This document shows, one piece after another, positions 57,647 to 63,539 of a stretch of 64,000 bases of DNA. The stretch spans positions 10,507 to 74,506 of the forward strand of contig CAMWYR010000005.1 of assembly GCA_947178505.1 (NCBI GenBank). The letters are read 5' to 3'. A program made the position numbers and the translations under genes. Each line of letters opens with the position of its first letter. Positions within the stretch are counted from its first letter, which is position 1. This DNA comes from an uncultured Muribaculaceae bacterium (lineage in GTDB: Bacteria; Bacteroidota; Bacteroidia; Bacteroidales; Muribaculaceae). Below the pieces are notes generated by a model. The model was given only the letters and a program-made list of their open reading frames with translations. It did not search any database and had not been told where the DNA came from.

Positions 57647-57678
57647 TTTGGCTGATTGAAGGGATTTTTGTAATTTTG
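57647..57678 (+). promoter_or_regulatory. promoter for the DUF1846 gene (TTTG 57647-57650, 20-nt spacer, TAATTTTG 57671-57678)
   Basis: Exact consensus. Only 5 nt separate the -7 box from the ATG at 57684. Confidence 0.55.
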
Positions 57679-57683
57679 CAGGC

Positions 57684-59159
57684 ATGAAACTCGGATTTGA
57701 CAACGACAAGTATGTGCGCATCCAGTCGGAGCACATCAAAGAGCGTATCGCTCATTTCGGCAACAAACTCTACCTCGAGTTGGGAGGCAAGCTATTCGAC
57801 GATCATCACGCGAGTCGCGTGCTGCCCGGATTCGAACCCGACAGCAAGCTGCGGATGCTGAGCCAGCTCAGCGACAGGCTTGAGATCGTGATAGTGATCA
57901 GCGCCAAGGATATCGAAAAGAACAAAGTGCGCCAGGATCTTGGCATCACTTACGATATGGACGTGCTGCGCCTCCGCGAGGAATTCATGAAACGCGGCTT
58001 CCTCGTGGGCTCGGTGGTGATCACTCATTATGACGGTCAGAAGAGTGCTGACGCATTCCGCGAGAAACTGAGCCGAATGGGCATCACATCCTACTACCAC
58101 TACACCATCGAGGGCTACCCCAACAATGTGGCGTTGATCGACAGCGACAATGGCTTCGGCCGTAATGACTATGTAGAAACGTCGCGTCCGCTCGTAGTGG
58201 TGACGGCTCCCGGCCCGGGCAGCGGCAAGATGGCAGTGTGCCTCAGCCAGCTTTACAATGAGCATAAGCGTGGCATCCAGGCCGGTTACGCTAAGTTCGA
58301 GACTTTCCCGGTGTGGAACCTCCCGCTCAAGCATCCCGTCAATATCGCCTATGAGGCAGCCACGGCCGATCTTAATGACATAAATATGATCGACCCCTTC
58401 CACCTCGAGGCATACGGCAAGACGGCCATCAACTATAACCGCGACATTGAGATCTTCCCAGTGCTCAACGCACTCTTCGAAGGCATCTACGGCGACAATC
58501 CCTATAAATCTCCCACGGATATGGGAGTCAATATGGTGGGCTTCTGCATCAGCGACGACGAAGTGTGCTGCGAGGCTTCGAAAAATGAAATCATCCGCCG
58601 CTATTTCACAGCGCTCAACCGGTTTGCCGAAGGAGATTCGAGCGATGCGGAAGTGAATAAGATCGGCCTTCTTTTCAACCAGGCAAAGATCAATATCGAC
58701 TACCGCCGCACCGTTGCCGCAGCGCGCGAATATGCTAAAGAGACAGGCGTGCCCTGCTCAGCGTTGGAGCTCAGTGACGGCACGATCATCCGCGCGAAGT
58801 CAAGCGACCTTCTGGGCCCGAGCGCAGCGCTCATCCTCAACGCCACTAAGCATCTCGCCGGCATCGACCATGGCGTGAAACTCATCCCGCAGTCGATGAT
58901 CGAGCCGATCCAGCAGATGAAACTCGACTGGCTGCGCGGTCATAATCCGCGTCTGCACACTGATGAGGTGCTCGTGACATTAGCAGTGCTCAGCCCGATC
59001 AACGAGCAGTGCCGGCAGGCACTCGAGATGCTTCCAAAGCTGAAGGGTTGCCAGGTGCACAGCACGGTGATGCTCGGAGAAGTCGACCATAAGATCTTCA
59101 AGAAACTCGGAGTAGGCCTCACGTGCGATCCGGCCAAGAAGCCGGCGAAATCGAAATAA
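57684..59159 (+). CDS. DUF1846 (UPF0371) family protein
   Basis: 491 aa. The N-terminus MKLGFDNDKYVRIQSEHIKERI...KLYLELGGKLFDD is what I recall as the UPF0371 signature. Confidence 0.8.
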   Translation: MKLGFDNDKYVRIQSEHIKERIAHFGNKLYLELGGKLFDDHHASRVLPGFEPDSKLRMLSQLSDRLEIVIVISAKDIEKNKVRQDLGITYDMDVLRLREEFMKRGFLVGSVVITHYDGQKSADAFREKLSRMGITSYYHYTIEGYPNNVALIDSDNGFGRNDYVETSRPLVVVTAPGPGSGKMAVCLSQLYNEHKRGIQAGYAKFETFPVWNLPLKHPVNIAYEAATADLNDINMIDPFHLEAYGKTAINYNRDIEIFPVLNALFEGIYGDNPYKSPTDMGVNMVGFCISDDEVCCEASKNEIIRRYFTALNRFAEGDSSDAEVNKIGLLFNQAKINIDYRRTVAAAREYAKETGVPCSALELSDGTIIRAKSSDLLGPSAALILNATKHLAGIDHGVKLIPQSMIEPIQQMKLDWLRGHNPRLHTDEVLVTLAVLSPINEQCRQALEMLPKLKGCQVHSTVMLGEVDHKIFKKLGVGLTCDPAKKPAKSK

Positions 59160-59177: not shown

Positions 59178-59969
59178 ATGATAGATCTCAGGCGCGAGAA
59201 TCTTACAAGATACATACTTCCGCTTCGCGAGGGGGGTTCATTGCCCGGCCTTGCCGAAGCGGAAGATGGTTTCCGCTATGTCGTGAAGATGGCAGGCGCA
59301 GGCCATGGCAAGAAGGCACTGATCGCCGAGTTCATAGGCGGGATGGTGGCCAAGGCGTTCAAATTTAATGTGCCCGAACTCGTGCTTCTTGATCTTGACG
59401 AGGCATTCGGAATCACGGAGCCCGACGAGGAAGTGCAGGAACTTCTCCGCAAATCAGAAGGGCTCAACTTAGGTCTCCACTTCCTTGAGGGGGCGGCCAC
59501 GTTCGACCCGGCGGTGAACGAAGTGGATGCGCTGACAGCCTCGAAGATTGTCTGGCTCGATGCGTTTCTCACCAACGTGGACCGCACTCGCCTCAATCCG
59601 AACATGATGATATGGGACCACCGTCTCTGGCTCATCGACCAGGGGGCCTCCCTTTACTTCCATCATTCCTGGCGCGACCCGGCGCAAGCGGCCCTTGATC
59701 CATTTCCATACATCAAGACTCACGTGCTGCTTCCCTATGCCGACCGTCTCGAGGAAGCCGACCGTCTCATGCGGCAGGCTATCACGCCCCGCACGCTGTC
59801 GAAGATCGTTGATATGATTCCCGAAGTCTGGCTTGACGAGCCGGAATCCGGTATCTCAGTCTCCGAGCGTCGCGATGCCTACAGGAATTTCCTTATTACG
59901 CGCCTTGCCGATAGCCGTATCTTCACGGAAGATGCCATCAGGCAACGCAAGCAACTAATGATGAAATGA
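59178..59969 (+). CDS. standalone HipA_C-like (PI3/4-kinase-fold) protein kinase
   Basis: 263 aa. RYVVKMAGAGHGKKALIAEF (nucleotide-binding Lys region), catalytic-loop-like LTNVDRTRLNPNMMIW, LIDQGAS (metal-binding Asp). No HipA N-terminal domain. Confidence 0.7.
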   Translation: MIDLRRENLTRYILPLREGGSLPGLAEAEDGFRYVVKMAGAGHGKKALIAEFIGGMVAKAFKFNVPELVLLDLDEAFGITEPDEEVQELLRKSEGLNLGLHFLEGAATFDPAVNEVDALTASKIVWLDAFLTNVDRTRLNPNMMIWDHRLWLIDQGASLYFHHSWRDPAQAALDPFPYIKTHVLLPYADRLEEADRLMRQAITPRTLSKIVDMIPEVWLDEPESGISVSERRDAYRNFLITRLADSRIFTEDAIRQRKQLMMK

Positions 59970-60367
59970 TGGCGGAAGATAAGGAAAAACTCATATATGA
60001 ATTCTGTGTGCTACGCTACGTTCCGGATGTGGAACGTGAAGAATTCGTGAACGTAGGGTTGCTGATGATGTGCAAGCGGATGCGCTGGATGCGGGCCGAA
60101 GTAGTTTGCGACGCAGAGCGTCTGTCGGTATTCGGCAATAAGGCCAATTGCCGCCGGCTCTCCACTCAGTTAGGGGTCTTTACCCGCAAGGATGTGCCGG
60201 CTCCGGATCTCCCCGTCGAAGAGCGCTACCGCTGGATGGCGGCCATGAAAAGCGCGATTATCCAGACCTCGCAGTCTCACCCTGGCATATTATTCACCAC
60301 CCTCTCCGATGCGCGCCGTGAACTCGACTTAAAATTCGATGAACTCCTCTGCCGGCTCGTGAAATAA
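59966..60367 (+). CDS. DUF3037 domain protein
   Basis: 133 aa. YEFCVLRYVPDVEREEFVNVGLLM matches my recollection of the DUF3037 N-terminal signature. 4-nt ATGA overlap with the kinase gene. Confidence 0.7.
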   Translation: MMAEDKEKLIYEFCVLRYVPDVEREEFVNVGLLMMCKRMRWMRAEVVCDAERLSVFGNKANCRRLSTQLGVFTRKDVPAPDLPVEERYRWMAAMKSAIIQTSQSHPGILFTTLSDARRELDLKFDELLCRLVK

Positions 60368-62410: not shown

Positions 62411-62606
62411 AACTGGGGTATCGTTTGTTAGCAAAATCATCGCAAAGATAACTAATTTCTGTTATTAATCACACATGGACGACTGATTTCTTTTTCATAT
62501 TTGATCGTGCAAGGCCGGAGTCTCAAATGTTAGAATATGCACACGGAGTACTGATTCCAAGTGGAATTTTTATTAAAATTTCGAAATTTTTGGTTACTTT
62601 TGCAGT

Positions 62607-63539
62607 ATGATTGACCGAGAGAGAGGCTATCAGCCCACTAATACGATGCGCGAGCTAATCCGCGACAACAACATGCTTCTACACGTGATCAGCCGGTTTA
62701 ATATCCCGTTCGGCTTCGGCGACAGCGAGATAGCGGACGTGTGTGAAACGCACGGCATCCATCTGCCCACATTCCTGGCCGTGTGCAATATCGTAAGCGG
62801 GCTCCCCTTTCCAGGAGGAGATATTTCGCTCCCTTCCCTCATTGCCTATCTGCGCAGGTCGCACCGGCATATCATCGACGTGACTCTCCCCCACATCCGC
62901 CATCATCTCATGGAGGGAGTTGTAAAATCATCGGCGGATAAGGTGGGGCTGATGCTTCTGAAATTTTTCGACGAGTATATGGAGGAAGTGCGCCAGCACA
63001 CTGAGATGGAGGAGCGTGATATTTTCAGGACTGCCGAGGAGGGAAAGGCTCCGGTATATTCAATTGAGCACGAGCCGATGGCTGAAAAACTCCATGAACT
63101 TAAGGATGTCTTCATCTACCATTACAAGCAGCAGGACGACGGCATTCTCAGTTCGGCGCTTCTCGACATCATTCTTTGCGAAGAGGATCTTGAGACGCAT
63201 TTTAAGGTGGAGAATCAGTTGCTTTTCCCGTTGCTTGAGAAGGAATGTGCGACAGTTGGGCCCGAAGAAAAAGAGGCGGAGGAAGGGCAAGATGGAGCAT
63301 CGGAAACCACTGAAGACTCGCTGCCGAAACTTGGCGAACGAGAGAAAGAGATCGTGACCTATATCGCGCGCGGCCTTACGAATAAGGAAATATCTGAAAA
63401 GCTCTTCATTTCGTCGCACACCGTCGCGACTCATCGCCGCAATATCTGCGCCAAACTCGACATCCATTCAGCCTCGGGACTCACACTCTATGCCATCACC
63501 CACAAACTGATCGACATCTCCGAACTGACTGACAGGTAA
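62607..63539 (+). CDS. hemerythrin-like sensor domain fused to a LuxR-type HTH (one-component regulator)
   Basis: 310 aa. HxxxE/D motifs (QHTEME, HELKD, THFKVE) and an H-rich helix (RRSHRHIIDVTLPHIRHH), an acidic linker, then the C-terminal HTH EKEIVTYIARGLTNKEISEKLFISSHTVATHRRNICAKL. The start may be M14 (62646). Confidence 0.75.
   Translation: MIDRERGYQPTNTMRELIRDNNMLLHVISRFNIPFGFGDSEIADVCETHGIHLPTFLAVCNIVSGLPFPGGDISLPSLIAYLRRSHRHIIDVTLPHIRHHLMEGVVKSSADKVGLMLLKFFDEYMEEVRQHTEMEERDIFRTAEEGKAPVYSIEHEPMAEKLHELKDVFIYHYKQQDDGILSSALLDIILCEEDLETHFKVENQLLFPLLEKECATVGPEEKEAEEGQDGASETTEDSLPKLGEREKEIVTYIARGLTNKEISEKLFISSHTVATHRRNICAKLDIHSASGLTLYAITHKLIDISELTDR

Follow-up and report, generated by a model that had tools for sequence, protein, structure and literature searches.

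The 64,000-nucleotide stretch of an uncultured Muribaculaceae genome analysed here (contig CAMWYR010000005.1, positions 10,507 to 74,506; hereafter the window) carries on its + strand two adjacent genes that encode a HipA-like kinase and a DUF3037 protein, and the function of this pair is the subject of the present analysis. The first gene (59178–59969) encodes a Ser/Thr kinase core of the HipA_2 family (263 amino acids (aa)), a putative toxin. The second gene (59966–60367) encodes a 133-aa protein that consists of a DUF3037 domain only and is a putative antitoxin or regulator. Direct reading of the sequence shows that the two open reading frames (ORFs) share the four nucleotides ATGA (59966–59969), in which the stop codon of the kinase (TGA) overlaps the start codon of the partner (ATG), indicating translational coupling. 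The spacing of the pair is likewise tight in its relatives, in which it ranges, between called genes, from a 4-nucleotide (nt) overlap to an 11-nt gap. These ORF coordinates, the ATGA overlap and the kinase motifs had been given in a first-pass annotation of the window; all were borne out, and the motifs fall on positions that are invariant in the family.

The kinase matched the Pfam family PF20613 (HipA_2; E = 7e-16, 58.7 bits against a cutoff of 27 bits) and the PADLOC profile PDC-M66A (E = 1.8e-20). The first-pass annotation had expected a PF07804-like match for the kinase and PF11236 for the partner. The latter expectation was correct; the kinase did not match PF07804 itself, PF20613 being a sister family of PF07804 in the same protein-kinase-like clan, CL0016 (10.64898/2026.09.18.752743). 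In an alignment of 32 kinase sequences with identities down to about 35%, K37, N133-x-D135-R136, N142, and D154 were invariant. K37, the ATP-binding lysine (codon 59286–59288), is held by VVKMAGAGHGKK and followed by the Gly-rich loop AGAGHGKK; it is also at least 95% conserved among 81 Bacteroidota sequences. The catalytic loop N133-V-D135-R136-T...N140-P-N142 (59574–59603, NVDRTRLNPN) aligns with NADRT...NVN of the experimentally validated phage HipA. The metal-binding segment L-I-D154-Q155-G-A (59631–59648, within LIDQGAS) holds D154, and has glutamine at position 155 (codon 59640–59642) in place of the usual histidine of the IDHG motif, which is at least 95% conserved in the 81 Bacteroidota sequences. 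Because glutamine recurs at this position in one intact homolog (L069) and asparagine is found in another (L010), position 155 appears to tolerate amide side chains.

The AlphaFold 2 (AF2) model of the kinase was of high confidence (predicted local distance difference test (pLDDT) 95.6, predicted template modeling (TM) score 0.93). A Foldseek search of the PDB with this model gave Helicobacter pylori CtkA (3akk) as the best match (E = 1.6e-5, TM score 0.55), together with Fam20, PI4KIIalpha, and Shewanella HipA (4pu3). CtkA resembles the window kinase in being a compact core without the HipA N-terminal domains, but the sequence identity is only 11–13% and the likeness is in the fold only. No match to PF07804 or to a HipA N-terminal domain was found in the kinase with Pfam. 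Since the Pfam family, the invariant motifs, and the AF2/Foldseek matches agree, the kinase is a stand-alone HipA-type catalytic core that lacks the HipA N-terminal domains, as had been proposed from the sequence. Many NCBI records of metagenome-assembled genomes (MAGs) label the homologs of this kinase "aminotransferase class I and II", while RefSeq (PGAP) names them "HipA family kinase"; the former label looks like a propagated misannotation.

The partner matched PF11236 (DUF3037) with an E value of 1e-21, and, as had also been noted, it contains no helix-turn-helix (HTH). Its match to the PADLOC profile PDC-M66B (E = 2.5e-12) was confined to positions 4–67 of the 281 profile positions. In an hhalign comparison with HipD, the 275-aa partner of the validated phage HipA, the aligned region covered residues 13–132 of the window partner and 7–125 of HipD, at a probability of 97.2%. 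The profile–profile comparison also revealed a second motif common to the two proteins, ERFRW..A.RS..IQTS in the former and FFRYFT....S..QFSS in the latter (pattern F-R-W/Y..T....S..Q.S). The partner thus corresponds to the DUF3037 domain of HipD alone, because the remaining approximately 150 residues of HipD have no counterpart in it. It ends at the domain boundary, with a conserved C-terminal helix. The AF2 model of the partner had a pLDDT of 91.3. Neither sequence and profile searches nor Foldseek identified a solved structural relative of DUF3037 (the best Foldseek match had an E value of 0.17, and the TM scores were at most 0.27), and a BFVD search matched uncharacterized phage proteins only.

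Homologs of the kinase are numerous, and the source names of the closest ones agree with an origin of the window in the Muribaculaceae (Bacteroidales). Among 1.84 billion proteins, 2,447 cluster representatives were found at E ≤ 1e-3, and species-representative genomes contained at least 596 matches. Related loci were collected with peptide patterns built from 8 closer sequences. Of the 80 best loci, 79 were in genomes named as Bacteroidota, including Bacteroides, Parabacteroides, Flavobacterium, Pedobacter, Chitinophaga, and Spirosoma. The exception (L034, JAMPHR010000002.1) is a 581-kb scaffold of a MAG labeled Paenibacillus sp.; its pair is of the Bacteroidales type, with a kinase 73% identical to that of L027, and it is either a misbinned scaffold or the result of a recent transfer. 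The pair also occurs in Streptomyces, where the two proteins are 249 and 131 aa long and their genes overlap by 4 nt. In Streptomyces sp. 2P-4 (L144:2921-6551), the pair lies between the genes for a phosphopantetheinyl transferase and a crotonyl-CoA carboxylase/reductase, adjoining a polyketide synthase gene.

The pairing of the two genes is obligate in the related loci: each of the 87 examined has, immediately downstream of the kinase gene and in the same orientation, an overlapping or abutting DUF3037 ORF of about 127 aa. No third gene was conserved beside the pair in the 80 species loci. The two proteins co-evolve, with a correlation of r = 0.88 between the pairwise identities of the kinases and those of the partners in 81 pairs. 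In the same pairs the mean identity was 51.5% for the partner and 65.7% for the kinase, so that the partner evolves faster, as is usual for antitoxins. In syntenic comparisons, the non-synonymous divergence (dN) was 0.06–0.07 for the upstream DUF1846 gene, 0.13 for RelA/SpoT, 0.16–0.17 for the kinase, and 0.35–0.38 for the DUF3037 gene. These dN values are comparable with one another but yield no dN/dS ratio, because the synonymous sites were saturated (proportion of synonymous differences 0.75–0.90). The low non-synonymous divergence at saturated synonymous sites indicates that both genes are under purifying selection, and together with the invariable adjacency it places the pair far beyond chance.

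Apparent natural fusions of the kinase and DUF3037 in a single ORF, about 14 among 150 cluster representatives, were considered as Rosetta-stone evidence and rejected. In the library of representatives at 50% identity, these sequences (P0263, P0268, P0343, P0374, and others) join the two parts through out-of-frame linkers rich in Arg, Pro, and Ala, and are frameshift artifacts of high-GC metagenome assemblies. Such chimeras seem to be over-represented among cluster representatives. The frameshifted sequences show no more than that a short DUF3037 protein comes after the kinase in high-GC genomes as well.

The short partner raises the question of whether the pair is what remains of a HipAD module in decay, with a truncated HipD and no activity left. 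The partner has only half as many residues as HipD, and the replacement of the near-invariant H155 by glutamine could be taken in the same sense. However, the short form is the rule in this clade, with about 127–145 aa in all relatives examined (the 87 loci and Streptomyces), and it ends exactly at a domain boundary. In addition, purifying selection on both genes is strong, all of the catalytic residues are kept, and glutamine or asparagine at position 155 recurs in intact homologs. We thus regard decay of the module as very improbable.

The closest characterized relatives of the pair are phage defense systems described in the last two years. A HipA-like/DUF3037 pair encoded within Retron-Sda1 protects against phage Bas51 without needing the retron; deletion of the kinase abolished defense, whereas deletion of the DUF3037 gene was toxic, which the authors took to mean that DUF3037 neutralizes a toxic kinase (PLoS Biol 2025, PMC12548924). 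The same study reported a strong association of DUF3037 with HipA-like proteins across genomes (PMC12548924). DefensePredictor led to the validation in E. coli of DS-6, which consists of a kinase and a DUF3037-DUF1829 protein (DeWeirdt, Mahoney & Laub, Science 2026, PMC13092281). Defense was lost in a DS-6A catalytic mutant, a DS-6A/DS-6B complex was predicted by AlphaFold 3, and DS-6 was proposed to be a toxin–antitoxin (TA)-like system acting through kinase-dependent abortive infection, in which DS-6B has no similarity to HipB and is a predicted DNA binder (PMC13092281). According to that article, DS-6 has been renamed HipAD, and its independent discovery is credited to Brenes & Laub (2025, Cell Host Microbe). 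In Escherichia phage PhiR5_1 (PV340545.1), genes annotated as HipA (249 aa) and HipD (275 aa) overlap by 4 nt and lie between cI and kil.

These findings change what can be said of the window pair. The kinase-type TA reading offered in the first-pass annotation agrees with the published experiments on homologous pairs. The accompanying statement that neither DUF3037 nor this kinase clade has an assigned function is contradicted by PDC-M66, the Sda1 pair, DS-6/HipAD, and HipA/HipD of PhiR5_1. Likewise, the suggestion of an undescribed two-component system has to be given up: a function has been published at the family level, which the annotation had itself named as an outcome that would speak against this suggestion. 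We found no publication in which the short-partner chromosomal variant was tested.

The window pair shares with HipAD of E. coli prophages and PhiR5_1 the order of a PF20613 kinase followed by a PF11236 partner, the 4-nt overlap, and alignable catalytic motifs. As in DS-6, there are two genes, for a HipA-family kinase and a DUF3037 protein, and both window proteins match the profiles of the PADLOC candidate system PDC-M66. A HipA_2 kinase with intact catalytic residues and a DUF3037 gene immediately downstream, the features by which HipAD, DS-6, and PDC-M66 are recognized, are thus both found in the window. The differences lie in the partner and in the setting. HipD has 275 aa with an extra C-terminal region of about 150 aa, DS-6B combines DUF3037 with DUF1829, and in Retron-Sda1 the C-terminus of the partner resembles a retron DNA-binding protein while an HTH gene and the retron reverse transcriptase and noncoding RNA flank the pair; the window partner is DUF3037 only. 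HipAD lies in a lambdoid prophage, whereas the window clade is chromosomal. The prophage, mobile-element, or defense-island setting that is typical of HipAD, though not strictly defining, is not found in the window, although a few relatives do adjoin McrBC or helicase genes. With a partner covering only part of PDC-M66B, the coverage filters of PADLOC might miss the window locus.

The classical Hip systems offer a further comparison. HipBA and HipBST have a HipA-type catalytic core of the same Pfam clan and follow the same principle, in which a small partner restrains a kinase that arrests growth, and HipT of HipBST resembles the window kinase in lacking the N-terminal subdomain. In HipBA, however, HipA carries N-terminal domains, the HTH antitoxin HipB is encoded upstream, and there is no DUF3037. 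In HipBST, HipS (similar to the HipA N-subdomain) and HipB are encoded upstream of HipT, whereas the window has two genes with the DUF3037 partner downstream. The gene upstream of the window kinase encodes DUF1846 and no HTH, so that the locus is not a canonical HipBA. A 2021 survey of Hip kinase families describes HipS, HipS-HIRAN, resolvase-like, and Stl-like partners (PMC8262856), and this article was not among the full-text matches for DUF3037.

Taking these comparisons together, we consider it on balance probable that the pair represents a minimal, chromosomally encoded form of the HipA_2/DUF3037 (HipAD, DS-6, PDC-M66) kind, in which the kinase acts as a toxin and the DUF3037 protein as its antitoxin. 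By analogy with the relatives, the 263-aa protein would be an active Ser/Thr protein kinase able to arrest growth, and the 133-aa protein, made in step with the kinase through translational coupling, would bind it and keep it inactive. Loss, titration, or displacement of the partner, presumably brought about by phage infection in those relatives that have been validated, would free the kinase to phosphorylate an essential host target, perhaps, to judge by analogy with HipA and HipT, a component of the translation apparatus. Growth would then stop and the infection would be aborted. As the window partner is DUF3037 alone, DUF3037 would be the part that neutralizes the kinase, while the C-terminal domain that HipD and DS-6B carry in addition, and that is predicted to bind DNA, would be an add-on. 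The sequences establish that both proteins are homologous to the validated pair, that the catalytic residues are intact, and that the two genes are obligately paired, co-evolve, and are under purifying selection; toxicity, neutralization by binding, the trigger, and the target are inferred from the relatives.

Several observations weigh against this TA reading. The partner lacks the C-terminal half of about 150 aa that is present in every validated or modeled system (HipD, DS-6B, the Sda1 partner, and PDC-M66B), all of the HipAD, DS-6, and PDC-M66 type having a partner of about 275–281 aa with a C-terminal domain that is DUF1829 or DNA-binding-like. The kinase is only 26% identical to HipA of PhiR5_1 (E = 6e-12) and its PF20613 score is 59 bits, compared with 258 bits for the phage protein; it therefore belongs to a divergent subfamily. 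The dN of the kinase is close to that of RelA/SpoT. About 20 partner residues are at least 95% conserved in the 81 pairs, many of them polar, which exceeds what a simple binding role would need; E12, R17, R24, E26, N29, R89, W90, S96, Q100, S102, and H105 form an invariant polar patch. The lifestyle of the clade also differs from that expected of a mobile defense system. The nearest neighbor of the kinase was in the same taxonomic order in 72 of 78 cases, the same flanking genes were found in 17–19 Flavobacterium species, and the immediate neighbors in ten diverse loci were ordinary metabolic genes. Two alignment-derived peptide patterns, the ones behind the 596 or more matches in genomes, gave no match to the window clade in 2.9 million viral contigs; phage HipA was found in 45 viral contigs, a count obtained by a different method (close relatives of a single protein) that does not allow a like-for-like comparison. 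Among 72,556 plasmid records, 7 carried a homolog, all of them very large and six typed as non-mobilizable. One of the plasmid loci (L145; NZ_OY725790.1, "plasmid 45" of P. distasonis in PLSDB) has pyrE, argH, gltA, groES, and recX around the pair and looks like a piece of chromosome, and the plasmid counts for this kinase family are thus overestimates.

Most of these observations would fit another account, the main rival, in which the pair is a domesticated signaling module whose kinase is not a toxin but a resident regulatory Ser/Thr kinase, for example in the control of stress responses or growth rate, with DUF3037 as its regulatory subunit, sensor, or main substrate. The phylum-wide distribution that mostly follows taxonomy, the evolution of the kinase at about the slow rate of RelA/SpoT, the housekeeping neighbors and the synteny within Flavobacterium, the lack of matches on viral contigs, and the near absence from plasmids all point in this direction. 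Among the invariant polar residues of the partner is a conserved Q-x-S/T-S segment, which might accept a phosphate or bind a ligand, and the partner has no C-terminal domain of the DNA-binding type that is typical of the defense versions. On the other hand, the closest characterized relatives are toxic kinases restrained by DUF3037 proteins, no conserved neighboring gene points to a pathway, and long-resident chromosomal TA modules that track the host phylogeny are known, such as HipBST of Legionella (preprint). The cassette also shifts its chromosomal site between related genomes and is absent from one locus where synteny is otherwise kept, behavior that is typical of autonomous TA-like cassettes. 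We regard the signaling account as possible, though rather unlikely.

Within the Muribaculaceae, pairs whose kinases are 75–82% identical are found in at least four different neighborhoods. The pair follows DUF1846 in the window and in three other loci (L001, L092, and L143), follows NrdDG-CYTH in two (L005 and L090), follows RmuC and precedes a helicase gene in L089, and lies beside BlaI/BlaR in L091. Empty sites are also seen: the RelA/SpoT-DUF1846 block occurs without the pair in L140, and the NrdD-NrdG genes of the window itself (169–2801, + strand) have no pair beside them. CYTH, DUF2007-like, and bPH_5, which come after NrdG in L005 and L090, were found nowhere in the window. Some of these neighborhoods contain further variable genes. 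A McrBC module adjoins the pair in L005 (9317-12457), between the pair and bPH_5, and is absent from the otherwise syntenic L090 (7236-7721), so that the site adjoining the pair is variable. In L089 (6001-11995), a 1,121-aa AAA_11/AAA_12 helicase (Upf1/DNA2-like) is encoded 1 nt after the pair and is followed by an AAA_14/DUF4143 ATPase, which also comes after the pair in L091; the surroundings in L089 may be a defense-type neighborhood. The evidence from the clade thus points both ways, with features of a resident gene and features of a cassette.

According to a further proposal, the short-partner clade may be an ancient resident chromosomal module of Bacteroidota and Actinomycetota, inherited largely vertically, whose main role is not phage defense. 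The polar patch of DUF3037 would act as a sensor or pseudosubstrate site through which a signal from the cell or from a phage controls the kinase, and the prophage HipAD would be a mobile derivative that has gained a C-terminal DNA-binding domain. We put this proposal forward as a speculation that is, in our view, doubtful.

The expression of the pair also bears on its independence. The Bacteroidota-type -7 promoter motif TAnnTTTG was present just upstream of the kinase in 48 of the 80 other loci, while about 7% would be expected by chance, as estimated from the density of the motif in the window. A promoter motif of its own in so many loci suggests that the pair is normally an autonomous two-gene operon. 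The motif is enriched in the window, with 43 matches against 25.6 ± 5.1 expected. On the + strand, however, there is none between a match at 57671–57678 and position 62595, and thus none directly upstream of the window kinase. The match at 57671–57678 (TAATTTTG) is a candidate by pattern match alone, and lies just before the start of the DUF1846/UPF0371 gene (57684–59159, + strand, 491 aa), which ends 18 nt before the kinase and may be co-transcribed with it here. It is possible that this motif serves as the promoter of DUF1846-kinase-DUF3037(-GT2) in this genome. A scan for sigma-70 promoters and terminators found nothing that exceeded the shuffled expectation.

The 18-nt gap led us to consider DUF1846 as a third component, which we rejected because its adjacency to the pair is restricted to one Muribaculaceae lineage (the window, L001, L092, and L143; 0 of the 80 species loci) and it also occurs without the pair. 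It is better described as context than as part of the module. The DUF1846 protein is 84–93% identical across Muribaculaceae and gives a full-length match to phrog_30143. A functional link to the downstream CotH and GT2 genes was rejected likewise, since both accompany the pair in one Muribaculaceae lineage only and in 0 of the 80 other species.

The same neighbors underlie a third account of the pair, in which the kinase phosphorylates a small molecule or glycan and works with cell-surface genes (the CotH-like kinase and GT2 genes downstream and DUF1846 upstream), with DUF3037 as an accessory enzyme or carrier. In the lineage of the window, DUF1846, the pair, CotH (absent from the window itself), and GT2 form a same-strand run with very short gaps, which together with the lack of a promoter motif directly upstream of the window kinase would be compatible with a common role, and the structural matches of the kinase include PI4KIIalpha and Fam20, kinases of lipids and of the secretory pathway. 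Nevertheless, the families nearest in sequence are HipA-type protein kinases, and the lineage-specific occurrence of DUF1846, CotH, and GT2, the existence of DUF1846 without the pair, and the absence of CotH from the window argue against such a role. We find this account very improbable.

The remainder of the window is unremarkable with respect to mobility. Its proteins are of the housekeeping kind throughout, and the first-pass statement that no mobile genes lie nearby holds for the whole 64 kb. Neither Rfam families nor tRNAs were found in the window. The 310-aa product of an ORF at 62607–63539 (+ strand) has a hemerythrin HHE cation-binding domain and, at its C-terminus, a LuxR/GerE HTH; it could be a transcription factor that senses O2, NO, or iron.

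The present analysis places the pair in the recently characterized HipA_2/DUF3037 (HipAD, DS-6, PDC-M66) kind, and it is therefore not an undescribed system. What appears to be new, judging from the sequences, is the short-partner form, which consists of the DUF3037 domain alone and differs in lifestyle from HipAD. The validation of HipAD and DS-6 dates only from 2025–2026. The locus offers a natural minimal version of the system, a kinase core and a bare DUF3037, that should be useful for working out the role of DUF3037. This minimal pair is conserved in hundreds of Bacteroidota species, including the gut Muribaculaceae, Bacteroides, and Parabacteroides, and is found also in Streptomyces. Whichever account is correct, the annotation "aminotransferase class I and II" needs correcting, and tools of the PADLOC type may miss the short partner. 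If the pair is a true TA pair, DUF3037 alone would suffice to neutralize the kinase, and the C-terminal domain of HipD would serve a different purpose, for example in DNA binding, autoregulation, or sensing. The pair would then also be a small, well-folding subject for structural work, as judged from the two AF2 models, on two families of which neither has a solved structure. If it is instead a resident signaling pair, a kinase module of the defense type would be at work in the physiology of the host, or would represent a source from which defense systems have arisen.

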